DNA from: an uncultured archaeon
Lineage (GTDB): Archaea > Iainarchaeota > Iainarchaeia > Iainarchaeales > CAZILS01
DNA length: 64,000 nucleotides
Direction of reading: 5' to 3'
Assembly: GCA_964540145.1 (NCBI GenBank)
Contig: CAZILS010000004.1
Span: 605-64,604 of the forward strand
Below, in pieces: positions 1,871 through 64,000 of the stretch. Position 1 is the stretch's first letter, and the number at the start of each line of letters is the position of its first letter. A program made the translations under genes and the position numbers. The notes below the pieces were generated by a model. The model was not told the origin of the DNA and made no database searches. It worked only from the letters and a program-made list of their open reading frames with translations.

Positions 1871-1874
1871 TGTC

Positions 1875-46687: not shown

Positions 46688-46830
46688 CCCTCCTTTGGTT
46701 ATTTAATCTAAAAAGGGTGTTTAAACTACTATATAAAGCTGTTCTTTGAAAGCTGCTTTAAACCGAAAAAGAAAAAGGTTTCCCCCCCGCTCCCTTGCGG
46801 GAGGAGGAGGCAACGAAACTAAACTTTGCC

Positions 46831-47307
46831 TTATGCGCAGTCGCCGACAAGCGGCTTTGCGCCAATCTGCTTCAGCCCCGATATCTTCTGGGTGTCGTAG
46901 TTGATATTGACATCAAGGCTGTATGGCTGTCCCGCGCTGCATGTGAACCCCGTCAGCGCAACCACTGTCTTGGTCTCGCCTGCGGTGAACTCAAGGTTAG
47001 CCGAACCTGTATTGAAGTCCCCGCTGCTGGTGTTTATGTCCTGCAGGGTTATCTTCTTGCTGGTCATGTTCTGTATCGCGAATTCCGCATCAGTTGCTCC
47101 TGTAGAGGTAACCTTCCAGTCCACAATTGCGAACGGATATGTGCCCTCCCAGTAGGCCCTGCTCTGCGCAGCGGTTATCCCGGTGCCAACGCCCGGCATC
47201 CAGCCCATGACCCCGACAACAACCAATGCAATAACAATGATAACCGCGAGGATTATCAGGTATTCGGTTGCGCCCTGGCCCTTTGAATTGATTTCCATCT
47301 TTAGCAT
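46831..47307 (-). CDS. Type IV pilin (major pilin candidate), copy 2
   Basis: Protein identical to copy 1. Confidence 0.8.
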   Translation of the reverse strand: MLKMEINSKGQGATEYLIILAVIIVIALVVVGVMGWMPGVGTGITAAQSRAYWEGTYPFAIVDWKVTSTGATDAEFAIQNMTSKKITLQDINTSSGDFNTGSANLEFTAGETKTVVALTGFTCSAGQPYSLDVNINYDTQKISGLKQIGAKPLVGDCA

Positions 47308-47396
47308 CCCTCCTTTGGTTATTTAATTGGAGTATTGTTGTTTTTCAAGGTATATAAACCTTGTGCATATGGCATTTCTCAATCCCTTTCTCGGCA

Positions 47397-49354: not shown

Positions 49355-49357
49355 CAG

Positions 49358-51229
49358 CTACAACTCCACGACCTTCTCATAAGGCAGGTCCTTCTTTGCC
49401 GCATTCTTGATGGCATCAGGCCTTGCATAAAACTCCTTCATAACCATGCCGACCTGGTCCATATCGTTGATGTTCTTTCTAAGCATCCACTGCAGTATCT
49501 TTGCCCTGTCCGCAAGCTCCGCATCTATCTCCTTCTCGGTCATTCCCGTAACAATGTTTATCTGCCTCACGAACTTGCTTGCCGGATTCAGGGTTTCCCA
49601 GCTATCGCTTCTAGGGTCCCAGCGGTATATGGTATTTACATTAAGCTGCTCGTTGCTTATCCCTGCCTCAATCTCTGCCATCTCATAGGTTCTCCTTATG
49701 TTGAGCCTTCTGTCCCTGAACTGGACAAGGAGCAAATCGACAGCCTCGACCTCCAAAGGCGGAATCTCTATCGGGGGCTCGGTAAGCCTTCTCAGCACCT
49801 GCTCCGCAGAGTTTGCGTGGATTGTCGAGTAGACGCTATGCCCGGTATGCATCGCCTCAAACAGCACCTCGGCCTCCCTTTTTCTCCTCATCTCCCCCAA
49901 AATTATCCTGTCGGGCCTCATCCTCAAGGCAGTCTGCATAAGGTCAAGCATTGTCACTTCCCCCAAACCTTCAGGGTTGGGGTTTTTAGTGGTGGTAGGC
50001 ACCCAGTTCCATCTCATATATTGCGGCAGCATAATTTCCCTGACATCCTCTATCGAGATTATCCTGTGGTATGAAGGAATAAATGCGCTGAGCGCATTAA
50101 GCGTTGAGGTTTTTCCGCTTGCTGTTCCCCCCGCAACAATGACATTAAGCTCGTACTGTATCGCAATCCACAGCATCGCGGCCATTTCAACACTCATCGA
50201 GTGGCTCTTGCCTATGAAATCAACAACTGTCCAGGGTCTCCTCGCAAACCGCCTTATTGTAAGCGTGTTTCCCAAAGATGAAACAGGGGAGAGTGTTGCG
50301 TTTACCCTGTCCCCACTTATCAAGTGCGCATCCAAAATCGGCGAGAGCGCGGTAATTTCCCTCCCCACTTTCCTCCCTATCTGCGAGGAATAATTCGCTA
50401 TCGCTTCCTCGCTTTCCATGCCCAGATTTGACTTCATCCACCCAAATTTCTTGTGGTAAACCGTTATTGGGGAAGAAGCAGAGTTTATCGCAACCTCCTC
50501 CAGGCCATTGTCCCCCATGAGCAGTTCAAGGTCCCCCAGGCCATACATTTCATGCAGGAGCCTCCCCGAAAGCAGATTGAGCATTGAGGGGTCCATTTCT
50601 GCGAGATATGCCTTCAGCTCCGCCTTCGCAACATCAAAGAATCTCTTTTTGAGTTCAATGCTTCTCTTAACATCGGTAATTTCGGAAACCTCTATGGGGA
50701 TTTTCTCCGCAATTTCGTCCCTCATCGAATCCAGGAAAAGCCAGGTATAGGGCCCTATGAAAGGGACCTGCACCTCGTACATAGGCCTGTGTTCAGTTGC
50801 AGCATCAACAACCCTGATTTTCACGGGGACATAATCAACGATAAATTCGTACTCGTCCAGGGGGTTCCCCCCGATTTTCGGGGGGAATTCCTTGTGGAAC
50901 TCTTTGATAAACTTTATGCTTGGCTTTCTCGCAATCATTGCGGGATATGCGACATCAACAAGCCCCTGCTTCTCGAAAACCAGGCCGACTTTTTCGACGG
51001 AATTCTGGCTCCAGTTAAGCTCCTTGGCAAGCCCGGAAATCGAAATTTCCTTTTTCTCCCTAAGGAGGTCCATCATCCTGTCTATGTTCGTTGCTTTCAG
51101 GGAAACTTTCGCACCTTTAATCTCGCTTGCCTTCTTCCCCTTTTCGGGGACTATGTCGTCAAGTGCAATTCCCTTCTTTTTTCCTGCTTCTGTTTTCTTT
51201 TCGCCCTTGGCCATATCGCACCGCTCCAT
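49358..51229 (-). CDS. Type II/IV secretion system ATPase (FlaI/TadA/VirB11 family), pilus assembly ATPase
   Basis: Walker A GGTASGKTSTLNAL plus Asp and His boxes; 623 aa with an N-terminal extension. Confidence 0.9.
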   Translation of the reverse strand: MERCDMAKGEKKTEAGKKKGIALDDIVPEKGKKASEIKGAKVSLKATNIDRMMDLLREKKEISISGLAKELNWSQNSVEKVGLVFEKQGLVDVAYPAMIARKPSIKFIKEFHKEFPPKIGGNPLDEYEFIVDYVPVKIRVVDAATEHRPMYEVQVPFIGPYTWLFLDSMRDEIAEKIPIEVSEITDVKRSIELKKRFFDVAKAELKAYLAEMDPSMLNLLSGRLLHEMYGLGDLELLMGDNGLEEVAINSASSPITVYHKKFGWMKSNLGMESEEAIANYSSQIGRKVGREITALSPILDAHLISGDRVNATLSPVSSLGNTLTIRRFARRPWTVVDFIGKSHSMSVEMAAMLWIAIQYELNVIVAGGTASGKTSTLNALSAFIPSYHRIISIEDVREIMLPQYMRWNWVPTTTKNPNPEGLGEVTMLDLMQTALRMRPDRIILGEMRRKREAEVLFEAMHTGHSVYSTIHANSAEQVLRRLTEPPIEIPPLEVEAVDLLLVQFRDRRLNIRRTYEMAEIEAGISNEQLNVNTIYRWDPRSDSWETLNPASKFVRQINIVTGMTEKEIDAELADRAKILQWMLRKNINDMDQVGMVMKEFYARPDAIKNAAKKDLPYEKVVEL

Positions 51230-51291: not shown

Positions 51292-52152
51292 CTATCCCCT
51301 GCACAATTCCGGTTTCCTCCCCACATTTACGTCGTTTCCAAGAACATTGAGGTCTGCATTGTAGTAGCACACCAAATCCCCGCTTTCCGCGGGGAGGAGC
51401 GCTTTTATTGTTATAGCCGCAACAGTGTCCTCATCTGCCAATGATTCCCTTATCAGTATTGAGCGCCCATCGGCCCCTATCTGCCCCACATGTATTGCCA
51501 CATAGTTGCTCCCGTCTCCCGAGAAATTGAGGTCGTATCGGTTGAGCAGCGAGGAATCCAGCTTTCCGGACTGCGTTACGGAATTGCCGTCGTTATCCCT
51601 GAAATCTATGTTCACATTTATGTCCCCGCCGGAATCCCATGCCCATGCGCCGGTCGAGAAGAATGTATCGTTCACCGAAACGTTTATGTCGTAAGCAAGG
51701 ACCCCGCTGCCGTCGCCATGGTCGCCGAACTGCACATAGTTGACTATGCCGTAATTATAGTCGTACTGCAGGCCGTTGTTGAACTTCAGTTCGGTTAATC
51801 CGTCTGTCAGCTGAAGCAAATCAAGGATTACCGTTGTGTTTTGTTTCTCATCGTACTCTGTCTCGATAAAAGTCTCAAAACCGGAGAGTTTTTCCTTGGC
51901 TATTCCGGAGGGCAGCGAGTCGGTGATTTCGATGGTTGTGTAGCTTGAGCCCCTGTTCACATCTACCTCTGTGCCGAGCAAATCGTTCAGCGTATCCTCG
52001 ACATCCTCCACAATAGCCCCCGCCTTTATGACGGCATAGCTCCTTTTCAGGTCGATTTCCCTGTCGTGTACATTGCCTGCATAGAACGCCGAGTAAAGCA
52101 GGAGCGCCGAAAACAGGAACAGTGCGGATATCGCAAAGACAAAGCCCCTCAT
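51292..52152 (-). CDS. Pilus-associated secreted protein with N-terminal hydrophobic anchor (minor pilin-like)
   Basis: MRGFVFAISALFLFSALLLYS, then a D/N/G-rich beta-type domain. Confidence 0.5.
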   Translation of the reverse strand: MRGFVFAISALFLFSALLLYSAFYAGNVHDREIDLKRSYAVIKAGAIVEDVEDTLNDLLGTEVDVNRGSSYTTIEITDSLPSGIAKEKLSGFETFIETEYDEKQNTTVILDLLQLTDGLTELKFNNGLQYDYNYGIVNYVQFGDHGDGSGVLAYDINVSVNDTFFSTGAWAWDSGGDINVNIDFRDNDGNSVTQSGKLDSSLLNRYDLNFSGDGSNYVAIHVGQIGADGRSILIRESLADEDTVAAITIKALLPAESGDLVCYYNADLNVLGNDVNVGRKPELCRG

Positions 52153-52156
52153 GGTT

Positions 52157-52579
52157 TCACTTCCTGTGCCATACGTTCATCTCCGCCACACATATGTTTG
52201 CGTCGTCGTTATTCACTATGAAAACCCTCTTCGAGCTTGTGTACTCTGTGAAGTCCTTCCTGCACAGGGGTCTCCTCACGACAAAGTCGGCGTTGTTCAG
52301 GTCCTCGGTAGGATAGACCTTCACTTCCGCACAGTATGCCTGCGGAAGCTGGTTGAGGTACTTCCTTATCCTGTTCACCCTGTCGTTCTGCACTGCGTAC
52401 TCCAGCTCGCCGCTCTTCTCGAGGACGGCAATCGCGTCATCTCCGAACTCCCTCAGCTGCAGCTGCCTGTGGCCTTCGAATTTTATTCCGGCAATGTATG
52501 CGGTTGCGGTAAGCAGCATGAAGAATATTATAAATGCGGCAATTAGGGCATCGAAACTGAAGATTATCCCGCGTTTCAT
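52157..52579 (-). CDS. Minor pilin-like protein (class III signal peptide)
   Basis: MKRGIIFSFDALIAAFIIFFMLL. Confidence 0.55.
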   Translation of the reverse strand: MKRGIIFSFDALIAAFIIFFMLLTATAYIAGIKFEGHRQLQLREFGDDAIAVLEKSGELEYAVQNDRVNRIRKYLNQLPQAYCAEVKVYPTEDLNNADFVVRRPLCRKDFTEYTSSKRVFIVNNDDANICVAEMNVWHRK

Positions 52580-53082
52580 TCGCTCACCCCCACCCTCACC
52601 ACAACGCTGCTGCCGTTGTAGTACGCAGGTCTTGCGACAGTAACGACCGTTGCGTTCCCGTCCCCGTCGGTGCCGAACTTCGCAGCCTGCTGCCCCCCCT
52701 GAAGGTAATTTATCGTGATTCCCACATTGTATCTCCCCGCCCCGAAAAGCCCCTTTGCGTCGGAATAGCTTGAATTCAGGTCCACGAGCCTCGCCAGCTT
52801 GTCCCCGTCGATAACCGACCTTTCCTGTACAAGCCCTATCGAGTTGATGTCGTCGATGCTCGCCAGGTATTCCCAGTTGGCCGGGGACCCTTTACTGTAG
52901 AGCAGCTGGTTGCTTGCCCTAAGTGCCGCTTCTTTCATATCATAGTCCTTCTCTGCATTGTTGAGGCTGTTCTGGAGCGCAGTCGCATAGACTATGCTCA
53001 CCGTGACAAGCCCGACAAATACCGTGAAGGCGACGACCGCATCGGTGCTGAACATTTGCCCCTTACTATTCAACGCCCTCAA
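52576..53082 (-). CDS. Minor pilin-like protein (SKGQ|MFSTDAVVAF)
   Basis: Class III signal with Q+1. Confidence 0.6.
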   Translation of the reverse strand: MRALNSKGQMFSTDAVVAFTVFVGLVTVSIVYATALQNSLNNAEKDYDMKEAALRASNQLLYSKGSPANWEYLASIDDINSIGLVQERSVIDGDKLARLVDLNSSYSDAKGLFGAGRYNVGITINYLQGGQQAAKFGTDGDGNATVVTVARPAYYNGSSVVVRVGVSE

Positions 53083-55042
53083 CCCTTACTTTTTCCCCTA
53101 AATTGGTGGCCTTGAAAATCCTCGGGTTTTCGAGGAGTTCCCATATGCACCCCCCCTGTAACTGGCACTCCGCCTGGAGTATGAGCCCTATGCAGCTTGT
53201 GCAGCTCCCCTGGCAGTCGGGCGGTGTCCATGAACAACCGTCCTGCCCCCCGCAACTCCCCTCGGTGCCGAAGGTCCCGCATCCTGTACAGCCCCCGTAA
53301 CAGTCCGCCAAGTCCCAAGAACATCCGTCCTGCCCCTCGCACGTGCCCTGTGCACCATATGTATCGCATGCGGTACAGCCCCCGTAACAGTCCGCCAAGT
53401 CCCAAGAACATCCGTCCTGCCCCTCGCACGTGCCTTGGCTACCGTAGCTTGTGCATCCTGTGCATGTGCCGTTGCAGTCCTCATCCCAGCCACACCCGTC
53501 CTGCCCCTCGCACGTGCCTTGGCTTCCGTAGGTGCTGCAGGCAGTGGGCGAGCCTGCACACTCATCAGGGTTCCACAGGCACCCGTCCTGCCCCTCACAC
53601 GTGCCCTGTGCACCATATGTATCGCATGCGGTACAGCCCCCGTAACAGTCCGCCAAGTCCCAAGAACATCCGTCCTGCCCCTCACACGTGCCCTGTGCAC
53701 CATATGTATCGCATGCGGTACAGCCCCCGTAACAGTCCGCCAAGTCCCAAGAACATCCGTCCTGCCCCTCGCACGTGCCCTGTGCACCATATGTATCACA
53801 GCCTGTTTCCGTGCCGTAGCAGTTCTCGGGATCCCAGGTGCATCCCGAGTCCTCGCATTCCCCCTGCCCCCCGTCATGTGCCGAGCAGGCGTGCGGTTCC
53901 CCCGAACACCACCATATAATGAACCATGTTGCTGTACAGCCGTGCGCTTCGCATGTTGCCTGGTCGCCTATATATGTTGTGCAGGGGTCATGCGTGCCCT
54001 CGCAGTTCGCAAGGTCCCAAGAACACTCGTCCTGCCCCTCGCAGTTCCCCTGTGCACCATATGTATCACAGGTTGTTGCCGTGCCCTCGCAGTTCGCAAG
54101 GTCCCAAGAACACTCGTCCTGCCCCTCGCACGTGCCTTGCGCACCATATGTATCGCATGCGGTACAGCTCCCATAGCAGTCCTCCTCATCCCATGCACAC
54201 CCCCCCTGCCCCTCGCAGTTCCCCTGCGCACCGTAAGTCGTGCAGTCCGTGCATGCTCCTGCGCAGTCCTCCTCATCCCATGCACACCCCCCCTGCCCCT
54301 CGCAGTTAGGCTGGCTTGCGTAGTTGTTGCAGTCGTTACAGCTCCCATAGCAGTCCTCCTCATCCCATGCACACCCCCCCTGCCCCTCGCAGTTCCCCTG
54401 CGCACCGTAAGTCGTGCAGTCCGTGCATGCTCCTGCGCAGTCCTCCTCATCCCATGCACACCCCCCCTGCCCCTCGCAGTTAGGCTGGCTTGCGTAGTTG
54501 TTGCAGTCGTTACAGCTCCCATAGCAGTCCTCCTCATCCCATGCACACCCCCCCTGCCCCTCGCACGTGCCCTGCGCACCGTAGGCATCACAGGCGGTAC
54601 AGCTACCTGCGCACCCGCCTCCTCCCCATAAACATCCCGACTGGGCATTGCAGTCGATTTCCGTGCCGAATGAGCCGCATTCTGTGCAGCTCCCTTGGCA
54701 GGTCGTGCTGTCGATGAGCTCGGCGTTCTTTGTCAGCAACGGCATGTCAAGGAAATTGCCCCTCCATGAAACTTCGACAGTATTGTCGGCTATATCGACG
54801 TTATAGTCCTCGCCGAGCCTCCCGACATTTATGGTTGCCTCCGCCCCCGTCCCTCCCAGCCAGACATTGTTTATCCCCCTTGCAACCTCTGACGCGATTT
54901 CCTTCGCCTCCAGGACCTCTCTCGCATAGATATAACCTTCCGTCCTCTCCCCGTATGTGAAGACCGCGAACGACAGCACTATGAAAAGCGCCACCACCAC
55001 AACAATGAACTCCATGCTCGCCTGCCCTTTTTTCCCACCCAT
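53066..55042 (-). CDS. Pilin-like protein with about 17 tandem cysteine-rich repeats (consensus roughly C-T-A-C-D-T-Y-G-A-Q-G-T-C-E-G-Q-D-G-C-S-W-D-L-A-D-C-Y-G-G)
   Basis: Class III signal peptide MGGKKGQ|ASMEFIVVVVALF, then a roughly 550-aa repeat array with 5 Cys per roughly 29 aa (about 90 Cys in total). The underlying DNA is near-identical 87/174-bp repeats, and that DNA repetition is why both strands throw up many ORFs here. Confidence 0.8.
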   Translation of the reverse strand: MGGKKGQASMEFIVVVVALFIVLSFAVFTYGERTEGYIYAREVLEAKEIASEVARGINNVWLGGTGAEATINVGRLGEDYNVDIADNTVEVSWRGNFLDMPLLTKNAELIDSTTCQGSCTECGSFGTEIDCNAQSGCLWGGGGCAGSCTACDAYGAQGTCEGQGGCAWDEEDCYGSCNDCNNYASQPNCEGQGGCAWDEEDCAGACTDCTTYGAQGNCEGQGGCAWDEEDCYGSCNDCNNYASQPNCEGQGGCAWDEEDCAGACTDCTTYGAQGNCEGQGGCAWDEEDCYGSCTACDTYGAQGTCEGQDECSWDLANCEGTATTCDTYGAQGNCEGQDECSWDLANCEGTHDPCTTYIGDQATCEAHGCTATWFIIWWCSGEPHACSAHDGGQGECEDSGCTWDPENCYGTETGCDTYGAQGTCEGQDGCSWDLADCYGGCTACDTYGAQGTCEGQDGCSWDLADCYGGCTACDTYGAQGTCEGQDGCLWNPDECAGSPTACSTYGSQGTCEGQDGCGWDEDCNGTCTGCTSYGSQGTCEGQDGCSWDLADCYGGCTACDTYGAQGTCEGQDGCSWDLADCYGGCTGCGTFGTEGSCGGQDGCSWTPPDCQGSCTSCIGLILQAECQLQGGCIWELLENPRIFKATNLGEKVRVEGVE

Positions 55043-55051
55043 AAAAAACCA

Positions 55052-57469
55052 CTATGATATTACGAGGTCGATATTGTCGAACTCCGCTTCTAACCACTCG
55101 TTGTTCCCCCAATCATAGACCTTCGCCCCAAGCTCGAGGTAGTATGCTCCTGTCCCGGTTATCAGCGAGCTTACATCTATATCCTCCGAGGAGCCTTGTT
55201 CATTGGGGTTATTGTCCCAGAATATTTCATCGGTCGCATCAGCATGGCTGTCACTCCCATCTAAATCACTTCCTAAATAGGTCATCCCCGATGAGTTCCC
55301 GAATCTCGCCTTTATCCAGACTTCGTCGTTGTTGTCGAGGCGGTAATCTTCCAAATACCAGTCGAAGGTGAGGCTTGCGCTTCCCCCGTTCTGGAGGAAC
55401 AGCCAGTGGTCGGAGTTTATATCGAACTGGATACCATACGCCCCCGAGTTGTCGCTCCCCGTGTTGTTGCAGCTGTTGTCGTAGTCGCCTATGTGCACAA
55501 TTATCTTGTTTTCGCTCCCGACAGTCGAGTCCGCCGACGAATCGTCCTCGTTCGGGTCCGCGTTGAACATCACGCACTCGCTGTTCGAGGAATAGGGGGC
55601 ATAGCCCCAGTCCCAGCCGTCATACTCTGCGCCCGCCCCGAATGTATTGGCACTCGAGTTTATGTCTGTGCCGAAGTCAAGCGGCTGGGGCCTGTCGGAG
55701 GTGTGTTCGGACAGGTCGACCGTGAAGGGGCCAATCACAATGATGTTTATCTGCCTGTTCTCGTCGCTCGTTCCCTCATTGCTGTTGCCGCTGTCATCCG
55801 TGCAGTTGACATCCCAGCCGTACGTTCCCGACGTGAAGTCGTCCTTGAAGAAGTACTGTGTCACCCCCTCGGCTATACTGTTGTTTGTGTCGTCGGTCGC
55901 CCCGTTTATAACAAGCTCGCAGTTGGCTATCCCCGAGCTCCTGTCGTAGACGTTGAAGTCGAACCGGACGCCGGCGAGGTAAGAGGTGGCTCCCGGTGCG
56001 GGGGAGAGCAGGGTTATAATGGGTGCGTTTGTGTCTTCCGTATAGAAAGTCCCTGTGGTATAAACCGAGTTGTCGTCGAACTCGAACTCTATCCTGAAAT
56101 ATTCCCCATCGTCCTGTGCGTCCGCCGTGAACCTGAGCCTGTTGTCGTTGAAGCTGTCCCCTGCGGTAATCGTGAAGTCGCTGATGTCCATCCACTGCCC
56201 TGCAGAAACCCCTCCCGAGTCCCACACAAGCGTGCTGTTCAGGAAAATCCTGTCAACCTGCGCGCCGTCGTTGTCGCTGATGTTGTAGTCCAAAATCCTC
56301 ATCCTGTTTAGGGTTATGCTGTTGCCGTCATTCAGGTTCTCGACATACCAGTAGTCCAGCCTTTGGCTGTCGGAGAAATAGGCGTCGAACCAGCTGAAGT
56401 CGAAGGCGCCGGCCGCCTGTTCGACGGTTATGAACAGCGCTATCGTGTCGGTGTTAGAGGAGTCGTCCGTGGCTGTAATGGTTCCTGTGTTCATCCCTGT
56501 AGATGCCCCCCCGGGAACCGTGAGGTTTGCGTCTATAATCTCGCAGGTGTTTGCGGAAAGTGCGGGGATTGCGGGGATTGGCGAGACCCAGTCCCCGGCA
56601 TCTCCCGCCGACATAGTGAACTGCACGTTCGTGAGGTCTGTGTCCGTGGTGTTGCAGACGTTGAAGCTTTGCGACGAGCCTCCCCCCGAGAAAACGCTCG
56701 CGGTCCAGGAGGCCGGGAATATTATCAGGGGATCTGCCTCCGCCGACACGACCTCGATGTTTATCGGCACATAGAGATTCACGTCCTCGCCGCCATAGGA
56801 CGCATTTACCGTTATATAGCCTGCATAATTTCCCGCGGAGGTCGAGTTCGAGGAGAAGGATAGCGAAAGGTTGTAGTCCTCCCCGTCGTTTACCGTGAAG
56901 CTGTCCGCGCTTAACTGCATGTTCACGTCGGTGTGCGCCCAGTTCTCCCCGATGTCCACTGTTGCCGTGCCTCCCGTGCCGTTCGTTACCGTGATGTAGT
57001 CGGTTTCCGAGTCGCTCTGCGCAAGGGTGAGGTAAATCGAGGTCTTGTCGATGTCCAGCGTCCCTTCTCCGATAGCAACATAGCCTTCGTATGCACTGAA
57101 CCAGACCCAGTGCCTTCCCGGGGAGAGGTTGAGGGTCCCGCTTAACGGTGCGTTTGTTTCCGCGATTATGTCCGAGCCCATGACGTTGAACCTTATCGTT
57201 TGGTTCTCCGTGCCGCTCAAGGACTCGTCTATGGTGTCGGGAACGTCGTAGTAAACATAGCGTTTCGCGCCCTCCCCCTGCCTGTAAACATCGTCGACAG
57301 CCTCCGCAAGGCTCTTCACGGAATTCTCGGCATCTTCGAGGATTTTCCGCTTGTTCATGTCGACAACAGTCTGTGTGCCCAGAGAATATACGGAAAGTAT
57401 GATGGCTAGGGAAACAGACAGTATAATCAGGAACTCGACCGCGCCTTGGCCCCGCTTGCAGGAGAACAT
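55052..57469 (-). CDS. Large pilin-like adhesin (805 aa) with class III signal peptide
   Basis: MFSCKRGQ|GAVEFLIILSV, then a D/N/S/T/G-rich beta-type ectodomain. The antisense ORFs are rejected. Confidence 0.75.
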   Translation of the reverse strand: MFSCKRGQGAVEFLIILSVSLAIILSVYSLGTQTVVDMNKRKILEDAENSVKSLAEAVDDVYRQGEGAKRYVYYDVPDTIDESLSGTENQTIRFNVMGSDIIAETNAPLSGTLNLSPGRHWVWFSAYEGYVAIGEGTLDIDKTSIYLTLAQSDSETDYITVTNGTGGTATVDIGENWAHTDVNMQLSADSFTVNDGEDYNLSLSFSSNSTSAGNYAGYITVNASYGGEDVNLYVPINIEVVSAEADPLIIFPASWTASVFSGGGSSQSFNVCNTTDTDLTNVQFTMSAGDAGDWVSPIPAIPALSANTCEIIDANLTVPGGASTGMNTGTITATDDSSNTDTIALFITVEQAAGAFDFSWFDAYFSDSQRLDYWYVENLNDGNSITLNRMRILDYNISDNDGAQVDRIFLNSTLVWDSGGVSAGQWMDISDFTITAGDSFNDNRLRFTADAQDDGEYFRIEFEFDDNSVYTTGTFYTEDTNAPIITLLSPAPGATSYLAGVRFDFNVYDRSSGIANCELVINGATDDTNNSIAEGVTQYFFKDDFTSGTYGWDVNCTDDSGNSNEGTSDENRQINIIVIGPFTVDLSEHTSDRPQPLDFGTDINSSANTFGAGAEYDGWDWGYAPYSSNSECVMFNADPNEDDSSADSTVGSENKIIVHIGDYDNSCNNTGSDNSGAYGIQFDINSDHWLFLQNGGSASLTFDWYLEDYRLDNNDEVWIKARFGNSSGMTYLGSDLDGSDSHADATDEIFWDNNPNEQGSSEDIDVSSLITGTGAYYLELGAKVYDWGNNEWLEAEFDNIDLVIS

Positions 57470-57501: not shown

Positions 57502-58284
57502 TTAACCTTTAATTCCGTAGAGCCTTCTCGCAACCTCTTCGGCAACATCCTTTGAATAGCCTTTATCCACAACTTCTTTTTTCACGTCCGCCTTGGTGTA
57601 GTCTGCCTTGTGCTGTTCAAGCGAGGCAACTATCGCCTCAACATCTTTCTTGTCGTCTTCGGCAAGGGCTGATGCCGGAGCCGCCGCCGGGTTCTCCCTG
57701 TTTTTGGCTATGGCTTTTTCTTCCCATTCGGCAGCGGCTTTTTTCAGCCCCTTGACAGTGCCGACCTGCCCGGTCTGGAATTCCGCCTGTTTCTTCTCTT
57801 CAGGATACTCTTGGGTTAATTTAATTTTATTTGCCTCTGTTGGCGTGGCTTCAGCCACAGGTTTTTCCATCTGCTCCTCTTTTGCCAGCGATTTCATTGC
57901 CGCCTTTATCTTTGGCTCCGGCGCCGCGGGTTCGGGGGAAATTGTTTCCGCCTCTGCAGCCGCCTTCTGGGCAGCCTTTTCTCCCTTGGCTTTTTTCTCC
58001 GCGGTCTCTCCGCCTTTCCCCTTCTTCCCCCTTGAGGCTTTTTCAAACTCAATCCCGATAAGGTCTGCGCCCGACATGTAAGGCTCGATTACCCTCCTGG
58101 TAACTGCCCTTAGCACAAGTATAATCGCAACGATGATAAACATGGAGCTTGCCCCGCCTATGGCGGCAACCGCCTCCAAAGGCAGCCACAAACCGCATTC
58201 CTTGATGCCAACGCAGGCGAGAACTGCGTTTAGGCCGATTGCAATCAGCAAACACGCCACAATTATGTATTTATGGAAAGCCAT
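57502..58284 (-). CDS. Membrane protein with K/A/E-rich low-complexity C-terminal region (hypothetical)
   Basis: Two TM helices then an AEKKAKGEKAAQKAAAE-type region; 260 aa. Confidence 0.45.
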   Translation of the reverse strand: MAFHKYIIVACLLIAIGLNAVLACVGIKECGLWLPLEAVAAIGGASSMFIIVAIILVLRAVTRRVIEPYMSGADLIGIEFEKASRGKKGKGGETAEKKAKGEKAAQKAAAEAETISPEPAAPEPKIKAAMKSLAKEEQMEKPVAEATPTEANKIKLTQEYPEEKKQAEFQTGQVGTVKGLKKAAAEWEEKAIAKNRENPAAAPASALAEDDKKDVEAIVASLEQHKADYTKADVKKEVVDKGYSKDVAEEVARRLYGIKG

Positions 58285-58320
58285 TTTGAAATAATGAGGA
58301 AAGGCTATATAAAAACCTTT

Positions 58321-58563
58321 CTAAACAGCCATCGTCAGCAGTATCTTCCTTCCCTTCGAGTATATCCAGATTGCCGCGCTTAGCGCAGTTGCCCCTACAA
58401 GATAGAAGACGGCTGCGTCTGTCCAATTCCCCGAAAGCTGGACAACAAGCCCCTGCACAGCCATAAGGAAGAACATGGTGGTTGTAAGGATAAGCGAGCC
58501 GAAGAAGAACAATGCCCTAAGTATCTGGGTAAATATCGCCTGCCTCATGGCTATCACATGCAC
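58321..58563 (-). CDS. Small 2-TM membrane protein (hypothetical)
   Basis: 80-aa hydrophobic ORF, co-directional in a putative operon. Confidence 0.3.
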   Translation of the reverse strand: MHVIAMRQAIFTQILRALFFFGSLILTTTMFFLMAVQGLVVQLSGNWTDAAVFYLVGATALSAAIWIYSKGRKILLTMAV

Positions 58564-58579
58564 TTTTTTCTATTTAAGG

Positions 58580-58948
58580 CTATCGCCGGTCCCTGTTGCT
58601 TTCCACTCCCGATTTTTTTGCGATTATCTTGGCCTCATCCCTGAACCCAAAGTCCTTCCCTATTTTCTTCACAATCATCGATGCCCTCAGCATGAAAAGG
58701 AAAAACAGGAAAACCAAAACAATCCCCGGAATTTCCTTCAATGAGGGATCTTCTATCGCGACAAGCCCGGATTCGAGCAGGAAGTTCCAAACCGCATAGG
58801 GAAAGCCGCACAGCATAACTGTCATCAAAAGCCAGACCATCAGCTGTTTCGTTGTTCCTTTGCTGAGTTCCCTGTATCCCTGGTATATCAGGATTCCCGC
58901 GGCAAGCCCGATAACCGCCACAAGCAGTGTTCCCAAAACGTTAATCAA
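58580..58948 (-). CDS. 3-TM membrane protein (hypothetical); start uncertain (TTG at 58948 overlapping the upstream stop as TTGA, or ATG at about 58838)
   Basis: The long ORF (to 59086) overlaps the upstream gene and has a non-protein-like N-terminus, so it is trimmed. Confidence 0.3.
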   Translation of the reverse strand: MINVLGTLLVAVIGLAAGILIYQGYRELSKGTTKQLMVWLLMTVMLCGFPYAVWNFLLESGLVAIEDPSLKEIPGIVLVFLFFLFMLRASMIVKKIGKDFGFRDEAKIIAKKSGVESNRDRR

Positions 58949-59532
58949 GATTTCACCTCCTTTGGCGCAGTCAGGTCTATAACAGTATCGATAAATTGCC
59001 TCAGCAGGGCAACCATGCCCTTGTCCTTCTCCGCGCTTATCGCAAGCACAACCCCAATCACGCCCCAGCTTTCCATCCTCCCGCATAAAAACCTCGCAAA
59101 CTTGTTGACTGTATTGGGCTCGTGGAAAACCGAGAGCGAGGAAAACGAATCGAAAATGAGGAATCTTTTTCCCCGGGAAATCGCGGACATTGCGTTTTCT
59201 ATCGCGATGCCGAGGTCGGTAAGGTTCTGCGGGGTGTCTATGTAAAGGCAGCCCTTTACCTTGCCCGCCCCCTCCTTATCCCTCTCGGAGGAGATTGCAT
59301 CGATGAAAATCACCCTCTCGGTGTCAACGCCCTTTGCATCCAGCAAGTACTTTAGTTTGCGGTAAGGCTTGTTAAGCGTGACGTAAATGCCTGCCAAACC
59401 CCTATTCTTCACGAGGTACTCTGTTATTTCCATGTTTGTTTCAGTAAGCCTGCTTGGGCTCTCAATAACAAGCGCAATCTTGTTTTTGTCCTTGAATGCG
59501 TTCTCAAGTTTTTTTAGAATTATTTCGTCCAT
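58945..59532 (-). CDS. KaiC/RecA-fold domain protein lacking Walker A (DUF835-like), paralog 1
   Basis: YVTLNKPYRKL...VIFIDAIS...FLIFDSFSSL...FIDTVIDLT is homologous to 62139..62690. Confidence 0.55.
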   Translation of the reverse strand: MDEIILKKLENAFKDKNKIALVIESPSRLTETNMEITEYLVKNRGLAGIYVTLNKPYRKLKYLLDAKGVDTERVIFIDAISSERDKEGAGKVKGCLYIDTPQNLTDLGIAIENAMSAISRGKRFLIFDSFSSLSVFHEPNTVNKFARFLCGRMESWGVIGVVLAISAEKDKGMVALLRQFIDTVIDLTAPKEVKS

Positions 59533-59573
59533 GCAAAAACCATAATCAAATTCTATTTAAATTTTCCTTCCGC

Positions 59574-61244
59574 TTAAAACACCTCGACTTCCGGATAGAC
59601 CGCCATTCCGTCCTTCTCAAACCCGATTGCGAGGAGCTTGTTTGTGTGTTTTGTCCCCCTCATCTTCAGGATTTCGCAGCTGTGCACCCTGACCGCACTG
59701 TCGCTTTTCTTAGAGTAATAAAGCGAGATTACCGCATCCGTAAGGAAGCCGATGCTTCCCTCCTTGATTTCCGCAACCTTCGGGGGCAGCTCCGAGATAA
59801 GCAAGGAAGTTACGCCCCATGACTTTAACATGTCGATGAGCCTTATGATGCTCTCCCTCCTCTGGTATTCCTCCCGGAAAAGGAGGCTGTAAGCAGTGAC
59901 AGAGTCCATGGCGAGCCTTGTTGCCCCCATCTCCCTTATCGCATCCTTGATAGGTCCCCCGCCCTGGGTTACCAATTTCTCGGCCTGGTGCGGCCTGTAC
60001 TCAAGAATCCTGAAAAGGTTTTTTTTCTCCAGCGCCTCGAAATCCCATCCGAATGCGGAGGAATGCCTTATCAGGGAAGCCCTGTCCTCCTCAAAACTGA
60101 TGAATATCCCGGGCTCGTTGTCCCGCAGCGCGCCATAGTAAAGATACTGCAGGCAGAACAAGGTTTTTCCGGAGCCTGCAGACCCGACAACCAAAACCGC
60201 AGAGCCCCTTTCAAAACCCCCCTCTATAAGTTTGTCAAGCCCCTTAACCCCTGATTTAATTCTTTCAATCGTCAACGCAGGTTTCTTCGCCTTTGCCTTT
60301 ACAACAGGCGTTCCCTTAAGGTTTGGCCTCTTTCCCCCCCGGGTATCGGGGCTCTCGAGAAGCTCCTTAAGCGCGGTCCTGACCTTGCTATGGCCTCCGT
60401 CGGTTTTTATCGCCGCGGTTTCCCCCTCTTTCAGGGAACGTGCAACCCCTGAAACATCCATCGACCTTTTGCCCTCGTCTTTCAGGCTGTTTTTTATGTC
60501 TTCCATTGCGGAGGCGATTTTGCCCGCGAAGGAGGAAGGCGCCTCCCCGGCCACAACCGCCGGTTTTGGGGCGGGCATTTTCCCGCCATGCCCTGCTGCC
60601 GAAGTATCCTTTGGCTCTGCGGTGCCTGCCCTCTGCCCGGGAAGATGCAGGGGAACCGCCCCTCCTTTTAAGGAGGGTGCCGCCAGACCGAAGGGAGGTG
60701 CCCCAGCCGAGCCGGCAGGCGAAGGTGCCGAAGGAATTTCAATTTCCTTCTTCGCTTTGGGGGGAACGGAAATCTTTCTTTTAACAATTGGAACTTTTTT
60801 TTCTGTTTTCCTCTTGGCGGGAACCGAAGGCTTTCTTTTTAGGGAAAGGGCCGAACCCTTCCCTTTCGGTTTCTTCGCACGAGGCGGCTTCGCCGTCGCA
60901 ATCTTTGTGGGAATGGCAACCCTGCCCTTTGCAACAACCTTAACCCCTGCATATTTTCCCGCGGAAGGCACCCTTATCTCAACTTTTGGTTTTTCTCCGA
61001 GGCCCCCAAAATCCTTTTTCCCGTTTTCCCTGAGTTTTCCCAAAACCCTTCCGGGAATTGCCGCGCCCCTCGCCTTTCCGGCTGCGCCGCCTATTGCGGG
61101 CTTTTTCGAAACATTAATCTTGACGGTTGATTTTCCCCTTGCACCATCCCGTTTTTTTTTCACCACAGATTTCCCATTCTTTTTTTCTTTGGGAGTAAGC
61201 AGTCTCCCAATAACCCTTCCCGGAACAGCGCTAAGTCCTGCCAA
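59574..61244 (-). CDS. KaiC-like RecA-superfamily ATPase with roughly 300-aa Lys/Pro/Ala-rich N-terminal extension
   Basis: C-terminal domain has Walker A GSAGSGKTLFCLQY and a KaiC-like core (ISFEE, LLISELP). The N-terminal half is low-complexity basic (K-rich) sequence. Confidence 0.7.
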   Translation of the reverse strand: MAGLSAVPGRVIGRLLTPKEKKNGKSVVKKKRDGARGKSTVKINVSKKPAIGGAAGKARGAAIPGRVLGKLRENGKKDFGGLGEKPKVEIRVPSAGKYAGVKVVAKGRVAIPTKIATAKPPRAKKPKGKGSALSLKRKPSVPAKRKTEKKVPIVKRKISVPPKAKKEIEIPSAPSPAGSAGAPPFGLAAPSLKGGAVPLHLPGQRAGTAEPKDTSAAGHGGKMPAPKPAVVAGEAPSSFAGKIASAMEDIKNSLKDEGKRSMDVSGVARSLKEGETAAIKTDGGHSKVRTALKELLESPDTRGGKRPNLKGTPVVKAKAKKPALTIERIKSGVKGLDKLIEGGFERGSAVLVVGSAGSGKTLFCLQYLYYGALRDNEPGIFISFEEDRASLIRHSSAFGWDFEALEKKNLFRILEYRPHQAEKLVTQGGGPIKDAIREMGATRLAMDSVTAYSLLFREEYQRRESIIRLIDMLKSWGVTSLLISELPPKVAEIKEGSIGFLTDAVISLYYSKKSDSAVRVHSCEILKMRGTKHTNKLLAIGFEKDGMAVYPEVEVF

Positions 61245-61376
61245 TCAATCTCAACTCGCCTTGTTTCTTGCTTTTCAGTGCCTGTTTTTCACTGTGAAGA
61301 TATTATACTTTCCCTGAATATAAAACTATTGACAAATATAATACAACACCATTATATACTACTTATTTCTAATTAA

Positions 61377-61787
61377 TTGAAGAAACTAAACCCTATTGGG
61401 GAGATTGGCATGCAGGGCAAAATTTTGATTGTTGACGACGAATTTGACGACCTTTTTTCGATGAAGGAAATCCTTGAGGGAAACGGGTTTGAGGTAAAAA
61501 CAGCGGCAAACGGCGCACAGGCCCTAGACCTCATAGAGAACGAGAAGTTCAGCTTTATCCTTCTTGATATACTAATGCCCGTGCTTTCGGGATATGGCCT
61601 CATGCGCCTTTTTAGGCAGAGAATAGACAGGAAAATGCCGATTGTTTATGTTTCGATAAAGCCAAGCCAGGATGTCGACATGGATGATATTGACGGCTTC
61701 ATCCAGAAGCCGTTTACCCCCGAAAGTCTTTTTAGCGGAGTTACGAATGCGATTAAAAAATTCAAACCGGGAGATGTGGCAAAATGA
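61377..61787 (+). CDS. CheY-like response regulator receiver (single domain)
   Basis: KILIVDDEFDDLFSMKEILEGNGFEVKTAANG...LLDILMP; 136 aa. Confidence 0.8.
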   Translation: MKKLNPIGEIGMQGKILIVDDEFDDLFSMKEILEGNGFEVKTAANGAQALDLIENEKFSFILLDILMPVLSGYGLMRLFRQRIDRKMPIVYVSIKPSQDVDMDDIDGFIQKPFTPESLFSGVTNAIKKFKPGDVAK

Positions 61788-62137
61788 AGACAATAATGGT
61801 GGTAGATGACGAGCCGGACATAAGGGAAACAGTAAAAGCTGTTTTAGAGAAAAATGGTTTTGCGGTGGTTACCGCGGTCAGCGGTGACGATGCCCTGGAG
61901 AAACTCAAAACCGAGAAACCAGACCTGGTGCTGATGGATATCATGATGCCCGGAACTCCTGTAAAGGAAATAATCCCAAAGATAAAGCGGTTCAAGGTCG
62001 CGTACCTCAGTGTTGTCAGGCTGTCGGAAGCGGAAAGAGAGGCGCTCACAGAGTCCGAGAACGTTGTGGATTTTATCCAGAAGCCGTTTGACATAGCGGA
62101 ACTTCTGGGGCGCGTAAAAAAACTGGTCGGGGAATAA
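61784..62137 (+). CDS. CheY-like response regulator receiver (single domain)
   Basis: IMVVDDEPDIRETVKAVLEKNGF...LVLMDIMMPG; overlapping start/stop. Confidence 0.8.
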   Translation: MKTIMVVDDEPDIRETVKAVLEKNGFAVVTAVSGDDALEKLKTEKPDLVLMDIMMPGTPVKEIIPKIKRFKVAYLSVVRLSEAEREALTESENVVDFIQKPFDIAELLGRVKKLVGE

Positions 62138-62138
62138 A

Positions 62139-62690
62139 ATGGATATCGCGAAGGAGCTTGCGGGCAACCAGACGATTCTTCTTCTTATGCCCGGCTTAGA
62201 GTACGGCGAAATAACCGCGGGCTTGGCGAAGCAGCTTTCAAAAGGGACTGTCTGCTATTTCACGCTGAACAAAACTTTCTCCTCGCTCCTCGCAAGCTTC
62301 AAGAAGCAGGGCGTGAAAACAGGCAACATGCTTTTCGTTGACGCAATCTCAAAAAGCATGAGGGCGGTTCCGGACCAGACCGAGCAGTGTTATTACGTAA
62401 GCTCGCCCGGCGCCCTGACCGAACTCTCGATTGTGCTTTCCAAGGTGCTTAGGCACAACTTCGATTACATTGTTTTTGACTCCCTCACAAACCTCCTCAT
62501 CTACCAGGAAAGGGATCCTGTCGCAAAATTCATCTCGAACTTTGTCAACAGAGTAGGGGCAAGCGAAAGCAAGGCGGTTTTCTACGCCCTGAAAATGGAG
62601 CAGCATGCGGAACTTGTGCAGGAATGCTCGATGTTTGTCGATAAGGTAATTGACCTTTCCGGTTCCGGTCCCGGGGCGAAGGGCAAATGA
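62139..62690 (+). CDS. KaiC/RecA-fold domain protein lacking Walker A (DUF835-like), paralog 2
   Basis: YFTLNKTFSSL...MLFVDAIS...YIVFDSLTNL...FVDKVIDLS. Confidence 0.55.
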   Translation: MDIAKELAGNQTILLLMPGLEYGEITAGLAKQLSKGTVCYFTLNKTFSSLLASFKKQGVKTGNMLFVDAISKSMRAVPDQTEQCYYVSSPGALTELSIVLSKVLRHNFDYIVFDSLTNLLIYQERDPVAKFISNFVNRVGASESKAVFYALKMEQHAELVQECSMFVDKVIDLSGSGPGAKGK

Positions 62691-62702
62691 GGGGTGCGGG
62701 CG

Positions 62703-64000
62703 ATGGCTGAAAAACCAGGTTTTCCCGGATTTTTCTCAAAAAGCATAACCGGAAAGGTTTTCTTCGGCCTCCTCATCGTCATAATCCTAACCCTGTCGAT
62801 TACGGCAGTTTATATCCTTGGGATAACCTATGTTTCCGGGCAGTTCATGGAATTAAAGGACACGTCTGTCCCCCTGATATCCTCGATAACCGAGACCGAG
62901 GCGCTTTCGAAAGAGGCCCAGTCAAATGCCGTGCTTTACATCTACGCCGGCCTGGATAAGGGCGCTGTTGAAACATCGATACTTAACCTTGAAAACAAGG
63001 CATTGGAACATTTTTCATATATAGGCAGGGCAACCCTTGCCGAAAAGGAGGTTGCGGGAGAGCTTACCGAAAACATAAAACTTATGGGCAATAAGATAGA
63101 GGAGATTGTTGAACTGAAAGAGGCGGGTGCTTCGCAGGCGGAACTCGGGGACAAGTACCTTCTTGAGGTGATGCCGCTCTCATCCAAAATCGACCAAAGA
63201 ATCCTTTACCTTAAGGATGCCTATTCGGAAGGCATGTCCAAGGCGGGGATTTCAATAGCCATGAGCCTTGGCGCGGTGCTGGCATGGCTTTTCTTTTCAA
63301 CCCTGCTAATAATTGCGGGTTTCATATTCTTCGCAAGGGCTGTCTCAAACCTCTTCGCAAAGCCGATACAGGACCTCACCAACGCAACAAGGGAGATGCA
63401 GACGGGCAACTTCTCCCAGAGAGTAGACATAAAGACAGGGGATGAGCTTGAGGAACTCGGAAATGCGCTTAACACGGCAATCGCGGTCCTCGCAGATACC
63501 GACCGCGAGAGGAAACAATTGGATGTCGCAAAGACGGAATTCCTAAGCATAACCTCCCACGAGCTCAGAAGCCCCATGACTCCCATGAAGGCGCAGCTCC
63601 AGATGCTTAGGGAAGGCTACTTCGGCAGGCTTTCCGAAAAGCAGAAGGAAAGCCTGAACATAGTCTTGAGGAATGCGGACAGGCTCGACAAGATAATAGC
63701 GGACTTTTTGGAGATATCGAGGATTGAGGCGGCAAGGCTTAAGTTCTCATTCAAGAGGATGAACCCTGAGAAAACAATCATTGAGACTGCGGAGTATATG
63801 GAAAACTACATGCCCGAAAAGAAAATAACCATAAGCACACGGGTCGGCAGGCTCCCGGAGATTGAGGTTGACCCCGACAGGATAAGCCAGGTATTGAGGA
63901 ACCTGATTAACAACGCCATAAAGTTTTCCAAGGATGGCGGAAGGATTGACGTTGCAGCGGAGACAATGAAGGACCACATCCTTGTGAGGGTCAGGGATTA
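62703..64000 (+). CDS. Sensor histidine kinase (TM, HAMP, HisKA, HATPase_c), 3' end beyond window
   Basis: Manual translation is open from the ATG at 62703 to the window end. It has two TM segments, an H-box SITSHELRSPMTPM and an N-box NLINNAIKFS. It is not in the ORF track because no stop lies in the window. Confidence 0.8.
   Translation, partial: MAEKPGFPGFFSKSITGKVFFGLLIVIILTLSITAVYILGITYVSGQFMELKDTSVPLISSITETEALSKEAQSNAVLYIYAGLDKGAVETSILNLENKALEHFSYIGRATLAEKEVAGELTENIKLMGNKIEEIVELKEAGASQAELGDKYLLEVMPLSSKIDQRILYLKDAYSEGMSKAGISIAMSLGAVLAWLFFSTLLIIAGFIFFARAVSNLFAKPIQDLTNATREMQTGNFSQRVDIKTGDELEELGNALNTAIAVLADTDRERKQLDVAKTEFLSITSHELRSPMTPMKAQLQMLREGYFGRLSEKQKESLNIVLRNADRLDKIIADFLEISRIEAARLKFSFKRMNPEKTIIETAEYMENYMPEKKITISTRVGRLPEIEVDPDRISQVLRNLINNAIKFSKDGGRIDVAAETMKDHILVRVRD

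Follow-up and report, generated by a model that had tools for sequence, protein, structure and literature searches.

The work described here concerns a 64-kb stretch of DNA from an uncultured archaeon (contig CAZILS010000004.1; this whole stretch, 64,000 nucleotides (nt) in length, is referred to as the window) and, within it, nine genes at positions 57,502 to 64,000 which encode a KaiC-family ATPase, two proteins predicted to be inactivated KaiC folds (dead KaiC paralogs), three small membrane proteins, two response regulator receivers and a sensor histidine kinase. Based on the sequence alone, these genes had been described (the original prediction) as a single KaiC-like and two-component signalling cluster which abuts a pilus operon and which may serve it as a regulatory or assembly module. 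All nine genes were found at the predicted positions, with slight corrections in three of the gene boundaries, and the adjacent pilus operon is real. However, the genes do not constitute one cluster but two modules arranged back to back, of which module A lies on the minus strand and leads into the pilus operon, whereas module B lies on the plus strand and contains the two-component genes. The window also encodes a thermosome and pilins with class III signal peptides, both of which are archaeal traits, and the closest homologs of the dead KaiC paralog in module B and of the KaiC ATPase are labelled as Woesearchaeota, Pacearchaeota, Nanoarchaeota and Iainarchaeum/Diapherotrites; from these labels, the source is assigned to the DPANN-type archaea.

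Organisation of the two modules

The features of both modules and of the adjoining pilus operon are listed in Table 1. The intergenic gaps in module A range from -4 to 41 nt and the last of its membrane protein genes stops 32 nt ahead of the first pilin-like gene. In module B, all four genes overlap or are at most 12 nt apart; the second receiver gene overlaps the first by 4 nt, and it stops 1 nt ahead of the gene for the dead KaiC paralog of 183 amino acids (aa). The spacer between the modules is presumed, from its position between the divergent genes, to contain the promoters for both of them. A search of the whole window revealed no further KaiC, receiver or kinase genes elsewhere in its 64 kb. 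The gene predicted to encode a HAMP histidine kinase does so, and it extends beyond the window; its remaining part is seen in another assembly of the same genome (L001; other related loci are also referred to by L numbers), which continues past the window end.

With regard to the corrected boundaries, the membrane protein open reading frame (ORF) listed at 58580..59086 begins at the TTG codon at 58948, the start of the first receiver is more likely at 61410, and the second of the membrane protein genes occupies 58321..58548. The three small membrane proteins that were expected to follow the 195-aa dead paralog are all present, with lengths after correction of 122, 75 and 260 aa. Homologs of the 122-aa protein occur in 4-5 loci and they adjoin dead KaiC genes in L041, L147, L148 and L159, in 10 metagenome loci (L089-L099 and L125) the gene that directly follows a KaiC ortholog encodes a homolog of the 75-aa protein, and a homolog search with the 260-aa protein gave no match.

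Table 1. Positions in the window of the genes of modules A and B and of the neighbouring pilus operon.
Feature	Position	Strand	Evidence and remarks
Module A	61244 to 57502	-	KaiC ATPase, 195-aa dead paralog and three small membrane proteins; continues straight into pilus operon
Single-domain KaiC-family ATPase, 556 aa	59574..61244	-	First gene of the array in pilus direction; Pfam KaiC PF06745
Dead KaiC-fold paralog (predicted), 195 aa, KaiC-linked subfamily	58945..59532	-	DUF7504; AlphaFold2 (AF2) fold
Membrane protein, 122 aa, ~3 transmembrane segments	58580..58948	-	Hydropathy; called in L001; TTG start, 4-nt overlap with upstream stop
Membrane protein, 75 aa, ~2 transmembrane segments	58321..58548	-	Hydropathy; homologs in metagenome loci
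Membrane protein, 260 aa	57502..58284	-	Two N-terminal transmembrane segments and ~190-aa A/K/E-rich tail; gene call in L001
Divergent intergenic region, AT-rich, 165 nt	61245..61409		Between KaiC gene and first receiver gene
Module B	61410 onward	+	Receiver, receiver, 183-aa dead KaiC, HAMP histidine kinase
Single-domain receiver, 125 aa (136 aa from upstream TTG 61377)	61410..61787	+	Response_reg 1.1e-19, 71.1 bits
Single-domain receiver, 117 aa	61784..62137	+	Response_reg 5e-21, 75.4 bits
Dead KaiC-fold paralog (predicted), 183 aa, receiver/kinase-linked subfamily	62139..62690	+	AF2 fold, homolog context
Sensor histidine kinase, 2 transmembrane segments, HAMP, HisKA, HATPase_c	62703..64000 (cut by window end)	+	Pfam; 606 aa full length in L001
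Five pilin-like genes (805, 658, 168, 140, 286 aa)	51292..57469	-	N-terminal hydrophobic class-III-type segments; directly downstream of membrane genes
Pilus core overall	45639..51229	-	T2SSE 2.5e-34, T2SSF twice, Class_IIIsignal
PilB/FlaI-type ATPase	49358-51229	-	T2SSE 2.5e-34
TadC-like platform genes, two	48467-49354; 47397-48467	-	T2SSF
Pilin genes, three	46831-47307; 46211-46687; 45639-46097	-	Class_IIIsignal

KaiC and its dead paralog at the head of a pilus operon

The first protein encoded by module A matches the Pfam KaiC model over aa 329-552 with an expectation value (E) of 1.6e-52 and a score of 178.7 bits, the gathering score being 26.6. Its active-site motifs are all present, viz. 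the Walker A motif GSAGSGKT at aa 354, the glutamate pair E385/E386 within SFEED, and the Walker B aspartate D447 within LAMDS. The Walker A motif, the glutamate pair and the Walker B aspartate are invariant across 17 aligned orthologs, and Walker A is present in 119 of 120 KaiC orthologs. Orthologs of the KaiC domain are 55-72% identical to that of the window protein. The N-terminal part of this ATPase, which the original prediction had described as rich in Lys, Pro and Ala, is indeed of this composition, its 320 aa comprising 17% K, 13% A, 13% G and 10% P, with a net charge of +50. The gene starts with a TTG codon and this start assignment is not certain. However, the possibility that the 320-aa tail is a spurious extension of the ORF was rejected, because relatives of the protein have similar basic extensions which share short motifs with it. 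Two such motifs are conserved within the tail, viz. K-x-D-F-S-x-h-h-G followed by lysines, and E-G-F-D-F-K-Q-V-T-x-Q-I-K-E-K, and a motif related to those in the tail is also seen in the KaiC proteins that accompany the two-component genes in other genomes (cassette-type KaiC). Due to the presence of these motifs, and of winged-helix or hemerythrin domains preceding the KaiC domain in the cassette-type cluster, the tail may bind DNA, the membrane or a partner protein. Within the tail of the window protein, a short motif, PGRV[IL]G[RK]L, is duplicated (aa 5-25 and 61-86), and the sequence K-K-D-F-G-G-L-G corresponds in the alignment to the K-x-D-F-S-x-h-h-G that is conserved in the N-terminal part of the orthologs. 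The C-terminal end in 17 of 17 aligned KaiC proteins is EVF (consensus YPEVEVF). The window protein shares its ATPase fold and catalytic motifs with the KaiC of the cyanobacterial KaiABC clock. However, it has one KaiC domain instead of two, no KaiA or KaiB is encoded in the locus, and its scores with the circadian KaiC models are far below what these models require (102.3 bits versus 546 for TIGR02655, and 149.6 versus 408 for NF006799).

The operon which follows module A has the components of an archaeal type IV pilus locus, viz. a PilB/FlaI-type ATPase, a TadC-like platform and pilins with class III signal peptides. On the FlaI model the ATPase of this operon scored 286 bits, under the cut-off of 550. 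The surroundings of KaiC were examined in 80 metagenome loci around its closest orthologs, with the counts given here referring to orthologs that are at least 50% identical. Of the 20 contigs that are 8 kb or longer, 17 have the same pilus operon headed by the KaiC ortholog and 14 have a dead paralog adjacent to this KaiC; for those that are 15 kb or longer, the pilus operon is present in 7 of 7. Hence, for the minus-strand half of the cluster, the inference that it is linked to the pilus holds. The conserved gene order is KaiC, an optional insert, a large pilin-like gene and four smaller genes of this type, then the ATPase, two TadC-like genes and a pilin. The KaiC-pilus gene order of the window is also seen in two contigs with independent annotation, and in L101, L091, L119, L135, L168 and L169 the KaiC ortholog is followed by the pilin-like array arranged as in the window. 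The optional insert can be the 75-aa membrane protein (in the 10 loci noted above) or a dead paralog, which is frequently encoded divergently; a PAS-PAS protein takes this place in a single locus. When the active KaiC domains were clustered, that of the window grouped in a pilus-linked cluster of 52 proteins, 27 of which have pilus genes within 1.5 kb.

The PAS-PAS protein is found in a close relative (L169:11182-12060), where it is located directly after KaiC at the head of the pilus operon, and it represents another possible signal input. In relatives showing ~40% identity (L147, L148, L159, L146, L155, L163 and L165), two or three KaiC genes are present in tandem and the dead paralog is divergent; in L147, L148 and L159, the homolog of the 122-aa membrane protein is next to this divergent dead paralog.

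That both paralogs have a KaiC fold without Walker A, as the original prediction had it, is borne out by their predicted structures, by the Protein Data Bank (PDB) matches of these and by the motifs. The 195-aa paralog matches DUF7504 (PF24336) with 49.4 bits, exceeding the cut-off of 27, and it also matches Pfam KaiC with E 3e-5. The 183-aa paralog scores 26.4 bits with DUF7504, which is just below the cut-off, and all 30 of its aligned homologs match this family at E of at most 1, the best value being 3.6e-10. The AF2 model of the 195-aa paralog has a predicted local distance difference test value (pLDDT) of 89.7 and in the PDB it best matches PH0186 and SSO2452, both of which are KaiC-like, and KaiC; for the 183-aa paralog the pLDDT is 90.4 and the top matches are PH0284, KaiC and FlaH (4yds), with template modelling (TM) scores of ~0.7. 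The query TM scores of both paralogs to single-domain KaiC-like proteins from Pyrococcus and Sulfolobus, to KaiC and to FlaH are 0.6-0.7. At the position of the P-loop, after the first strand, one of the paralogs has ESPSRLTE and the other PGLEYGE, the catalytic glutamate pair has changed to T-L-N-K, and the Walker B aspartate alone is retained. No Walker A motif was found in the dead-paralog families, in any of 136 related ORFs or 149 library representatives. Both paralogs thus appear, as modelled, to be inactivated KaiC folds which have lost the P-loop. The two are 29% identical to each other (E 2e-18). A BLASTP comparison of the 195-aa paralog with the window KaiC gave no match, and a profile-profile comparison between alignments of dead KaiC proteins and KaiC orthologs was not significant (probability 1.9%, E 0.026), with only the Walker B region being aligned; due to this, the homology of the paralogs to KaiC rests on the Pfam matches and on the fold. 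With DUF835 (PF05763), the 183-aa paralog scored 14.3 bits, compared to the 33.1 that are required, and 20 of 30 of its homologs gave weak matches to this family (best 1e-4).

A full HMMER scan identified 1621 representatives related to the 195-aa paralog, and since a word-indexed search yielded only 5, the low yield of the latter reflects a limit in its sensitivity. The 136 dead-KaiC ORFs were clustered by sequence. One cluster of 93, inclusive of the 183-aa paralog from the window, is receiver-linked: apart from this paralog it has 92 members, and for 81 of them the gene immediately ahead encodes a receiver. Two further clusters, of 19 and 18 members, are KaiC-adjacent; KaiC adjoins 15 of 18 members of the first, which includes the 195-aa paralog from the window, and 18 of 18 members of the second, and the members of the cluster of 19 are never receiver-linked. 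Judged by this clustering, the dead KaiC proteins are divided according to their partners into receiver-linked and KaiC-linked subfamilies. Two library representatives of the 195-aa family (P0258 and P0316) are fusions, of the type KaiB-V4R-dead KaiC and dead KaiC-WD40 propeller, and such fusions fit a role of the dead KaiC as a hub or adaptor.

The two-component cassette and its distribution

Both receivers score above the PF00072 cut-off of 30.2 bits and each has a full acceptor pocket, formed by D53, S82 and K100 in the first, together with DD, and by D52, S76 and K100 in the second. The original prediction was correct in calling them single-domain receivers. However, it had also assigned them to CheY, and as no CheA, CheW, MCP or CheF is found in the window or in L001, they appear to be stand-alone single-domain receivers and not chemotaxis CheY proper. 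The conserved phosphorylatable histidine of the kinase is His286, in the motif SHELRSP.

The 183-aa dead KaiC has 277 homologs in DPANN archaea at 53-60% identity, which is unusually conserved for such lineages. The gene context was determined for 80 genome loci around these homologs, with the ORFs of each locus being searched with the window proteins. The gene immediately preceding the dead KaiC encodes a receiver in 72 of 78 loci, with two receivers found there in 41 of 72, and in 43 of 61 a kinase gene follows at a distance of at most 2 kb. The usual partner of the cassette is an active KaiC, which is present within 10 kb of it in 15 of the 22 loci that are fully flanked. Based on these counts, the plus-strand half of the cluster represents a general signalling cassette of DPANN archaea. 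In annotated examples, which represent a longer operon of this kind, the gene order is receiver, receiver, dead KaiC, kinase, a ~245-aa protein, a dCache protein, hemerythrin and KaiC. In the genome of the window, the genes past the kinase (seen in L001) encode a 1287-aa dCache-PAS-GAF protein without a kinase domain, a 118-aa PAS protein and tRNA-related functions. Within the cluster of cassette-type KaiC proteins, two have a winged helix and one a hemerythrin domain ahead of the KaiC domain.

The 1287-aa protein (L001:1039-4902) contains dCache, multiple PAS and GAF domains and no kinase or other output domain, and in the same place the related operons have a ~505-aa dCache protein together with the conserved ~245-aa protein. 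Hemerythrin genes are found just upstream of KaiC in several DPANN two-component operons (L086, L087, L011:14326-14745 and L012:14750-15139), and in one case (L063:18197-19828) hemerythrin is fused to KaiC. The recurrence of hemerythrin hints at oxygen, iron or nitric oxide as an input. Some of the contigs with cassettes, viz. L008, L022, L076, L014 and others, are labelled as Sulfurovum, Chloroflexota, 'bacterium' or Methanosarcinales; these off-lineage labels are probably due to mis-binning rather than transfer.

Possible connection of the cassette with the pilus KaiC

In a number of loci (L025, L028, L060, L064, L021 and L091), a KaiC gene marks the point at which the cassette adjoins the pilus genes, and in L089 it is found at the far end of the pilus core instead. 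In some of these loci (L025, L028 and L064), the genes form one co-directional array in the order ATPase, TadC, TadC, KaiC, receiver, receiver, dead KaiC and kinase. Another informative case is L011, from Iainarchaeum, where a two-component operon ends in a KaiC from the ortholog group of the window protein and is not followed by pilus genes. Among the KaiC domains of the genome loci, that of this protein gave the best match (E 1.7e-113), and the protein has in common with the window KaiC the short N-terminal motifs and the YPEVEVF C-terminus. In the genome of the window, there is no KaiC gene within 6 kb past the kinase (L001) and the pilus KaiC is the divergent neighbour of the cassette, therefore the cassette most likely signals into the pilus via this KaiC, and from the gene arrangement a signal path of this kind is plausible.

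As an interpretation of the locus, we consider the chances to be about even that in module A, the conserved pilus operon head, KaiC acts as an ArlH-like accessory factor or regulator, and that this head is in the present case fed by the cassette. From the observed domain content, loss of active-site motifs, folds and conserved gene order, we infer the physical interactions, the phosphotransfer and the direction of the signal as follows. The archaellum proteins ArlH and ArlI serve as the model here: KaiC would oligomerise in a manner dependent upon ATP and autophosphorylation, and the oligomer would bind to the PilB-type assembly ATPase and the TadC platform or gate them in another way, with the 195-aa dead paralog serving as a non-catalytic partner of KaiC and the small membrane proteins anchoring the complex. 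On the side of the cassette, the membrane-bound HAMP kinase would phosphorylate the two stand-alone receivers. The second of these, which is translationally coupled to the dead KaiC adaptor, could correspond to the known fusions of a receiver with a dead KaiC, here divided into two genes, and the receiver would act via this adaptor on a KaiC ATPase, which is here probably the pilus KaiC. In this manner, environmental signals would reach pilus assembly or activity through contacts among KaiC and KaiC-fold proteins. The full scheme as a general DPANN device, viz. a protein-only chain leading from a histidine kinase to a receiver, a nucleotide-blind KaiC adaptor and an active KaiC, which directly switches a type IV pilus motor, is a speculative extension that we think unlikely to be right in its entirety.

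With regard to ArlH, one study (10.1101/2021.03.19.436134) reports that its autophosphorylation governs both its oligomerisation and its binding to ArlI. The window locus resembles the ArlH/ArlI/ArlJ system in that a single-domain KaiC-fold protein is encoded in one operon with a FlaI/PilB-type ATPase and a TadC-like platform, and the FlaH structure (4yds) ranks among the top PDB matches for the 183-aa paralog. However, the filament genes of the window encode PilA-like pilins without an archaellin domain, which match only Class_IIIsignal, and archaellin, the stator families and ArlF, ArlG, ArlC/D/E and ArlX were not matched at the locus. The locus also has a dead paralog and a long basic tail on KaiC, neither of which is reported for ArlH.

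A number of observations weigh against the proposed connection between cassette and pilus motor, or against parts of it. One of these is that the window KaiC scores well below the requirements of the ArlH/FlaH equivalog models (28.9 bits versus 215 for NF052589 and 33.4 versus 194 for NF004723) and it is, by this measure, not an ortholog of ArlH/FlaH. Of the other families named in the original prediction, DUF835 does not hold for the paralogs, both of which stay below its threshold. Several others bear on an alternative possibility, in which only module A is related to the pilus, whereas the cassette is an autonomous and general DPANN signalling unit with its output elsewhere, viz. a KaiC type of its own or some other target, and its adjacency to the pilus is a meaningless rearrangement. 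Of the 22 fully flanked loci, only 2 have pilus core genes at a distance of up to 10 kb from the cassette, and overall such genes are present in 12 of 80. The occurrence of the cluster in relatives without pilus genes had been named in the original prediction as an observation that would speak against it, and with pilus genes absent in 20 of these 22 loci, the claim that the plus-strand half is bound to the pilus is not supported in its original form, and the link of this half to the pilus would be an indirect one. Further, most of the cassette-linked KaiC proteins form a separate cluster of 18 members, which never adjoin pilus genes, and due to this the juxtaposition seen in the window could be incidental. 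Two-component genes are likewise present in only 2 of 43 loci around KaiC orthologs that are at least 50% identical (contigs of any length), and as the genome was viewed over 64 kb only, a cassette-type KaiC may exist elsewhere in it. However, where both modules do occur together they are tightly joined, with KaiC at the junction and in some cases in one direction of transcription, and both the two-component operon of L011, which ends in a KaiC from the ortholog group of the window protein, and the lack of a KaiC within 6 kb past the window kinase weigh against an autonomous cassette. An independent cassette that has merely come to lie beside the pilus genes is thus doubtful, although it deserves to be taken seriously.

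Another alternative is that KaiC controls gene expression, with its Lys-rich tail binding nucleic acid and its ATPase/autokinase state setting the transcription of the pilus operon, in a manner comparable to CirA with the arl genes, or to GvpD in the control of gas vesicles. The strongly basic character of the tail, basic tails being common among the relatives, could be explained in this way, and the KaiC gene adjoins the presumed divergent promoter region. In L043:8904-10142 a winged-helix domain precedes the cassette-type KaiC (HTH_24, 23.2 bits versus 21.9), and the cassette-type KaiC of L012:18871-20148 also has an N-terminal winged helix, with a weak match to HTH_IclR. CirA of Haloferax volcanii is a KaiC-like regulator that is encoded divergently next to the type IV filament (arl) gene cluster, and its loss alters arl transcript levels (PMC10983859). 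These winged-helix-KaiC relatives and the precedent of CirA point to transcription control rather than docking on a motor. However, the length of the basic tail ranges from 0 to 320 aa among the orthologs and several close orthologs have no tail, which weighs against this alternative and also against the interpretation preferred here. As it is the KaiC domain that is conserved, the core function of the protein should reside in that domain. Additionally, the conserved short motifs of the tail resemble docking helices and not DNA-binding repeats, and the conservation of membrane proteins beside KaiC suggests a membrane-associated complex. In view of this, control of pilus transcription by KaiC appears improbable. 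Lastly, the suggestion that KaiC and its dead paralog constitute a RadA/RadB-like unit for DNA repair or handling, whose synteny with the pilus would reflect hitch-hiking or DNA uptake by the pilus, could draw on the membership of KaiC in the RecA superfamily, on weak RadA, RadB and DnaB matches and on the basic tail, but it is very improbable, since the models for these three proteins, whose identity with KaiC was rejected, give at most 26 bits compared to 150-180 bits for the KaiC models, the position at the pilus operon head is conserved across DPANN lineages, and the locus contains no DNA-processing genes.

The proposal of a pilus-linked KaiC that is fed by the cassette does not overturn current views, as the occurrence of KaiC genes in pilus loci and the coupling of receivers to dead KaiC are both already known. 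KaiC-family genes in or near archaeal pilus operons were predicted to be regulators, and a two-tadC layout of the euryarchaeal clade 2-like type was described, in the survey by Makarova, Koonin and Albers 2016 (PMC4858521), and another report (PMC10334743) discusses a KaiC-like gene in the pilus locus of Pyrobaculum calidifontis as a step toward the archaellum. The window shares with these loci the KaiC gene, two tadC-like genes and PilA-like pilins. However, few DPANN genomes are covered by these surveys, and a fixed KaiC at the operon head, a paired dead paralog, small membrane genes and a back-to-back cassette are not described for those pilus loci in the available parts of the two sources. 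PMC5847659 describes the coupling of dead KaiC-fold domains to receiver domains and kinases, and it catalogues fusions of receivers to inactivated KaiC domains (REC-DUF835, REC-MEDS and iKaiC-REC). The window differs from these fusions in having the receiver and the dead KaiC as separate, translationally coupled genes, and its family is DUF7504/DUF7090, with scores below the DUF835 and MEDS thresholds. With CirA, the window KaiC shares its divergent position beside a filament gene cluster, the filament system being regulated by CirA; however, CirA adjoins archaellum genes and affects arl transcripts and cell shape, and neither a dead paralog nor a two-component cassette is described for it in the available part of PMC10983859. 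Four points therefore appear to be new. One is the cassette found throughout DPANN archaea, in which a receiver and a dead KaiC are encoded by coupled but separate genes, and another is the existence of two subfamilies of dead KaiC, linked to receivers and to KaiC, respectively. The third is the constant location of KaiC as the first gene of this pilus operon, where it is accompanied by a dead paralog and by genes for small membrane proteins, and the fourth is the repeated occurrence of KaiC where the cassette joins the pilus genes. In the literature searched on DUF7504, DUF7090 and DUF7125, or on DPANN archaea in combination with KaiC, pili and two-component systems, nothing specific was found on these four points.

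The genomes of DPANN archaea are tiny, and a dependence on host cells is presumed for these organisms. To our knowledge, they largely lack DNA-binding response regulators, and we know of no account of the means by which they perceive the environment and regulate the filaments on their surface. Makarova, Galperin and Koonin are said to have proposed in 2017 that KaiC-like ATPases are hubs of archaeal signalling. The locus described here, together with the ~160 related loci, provides a concrete and testable wiring diagram for sensing and filament control in DPANN archaea, and it carries this hub idea into a lineage that was barely covered when the idea was proposed. The diagram tells the two dead-KaiC subfamilies apart by their partners, and it yields candidates for interaction studies. 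If the speculative protein-only chain described above holds, the core formed by KaiC, PilB and TadC would represent a living intermediate between pili and the archaellum, in which ArlH is a recruited KaiC, and, should the pili serve in host attachment or uptake, the locus would encode a signal-gated attachment machine.

Some further features of the pilus genes and of the window may be noted. The pilins encoded at 46211-46687 and 46831-47307 have identical translations of 158 aa and lie 620 nt apart, which indicates a recent tandem duplication; a third related pilin is encoded at 45639-46097, with E of ~1e-43 between the pilins. The 658-aa pilin-like protein (53066-55042) is filled by a Cys-rich unit of 29 aa that is present in ~17 copies or more, with the repeats located at 53278-54584. 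At the DNA level these are 87-nt tandem repeats, and some units of 174 nt are 98% identical. As the counterparts of this protein in relatives are only ~130 aa long, the repeats represent a lineage-specific expansion within a minor pilin. The pilus ATPase (49358-51229) has a Lys-rich N-terminal extension, the first ~170 aa, which precedes the T2SSE domain, and in this region the ortholog from L168 shows a weak zinc-finger match. Lastly, the G+C content at positions 1-6000 of the window is 0.40-0.43, whereas it is ~0.50 across the remaining part.

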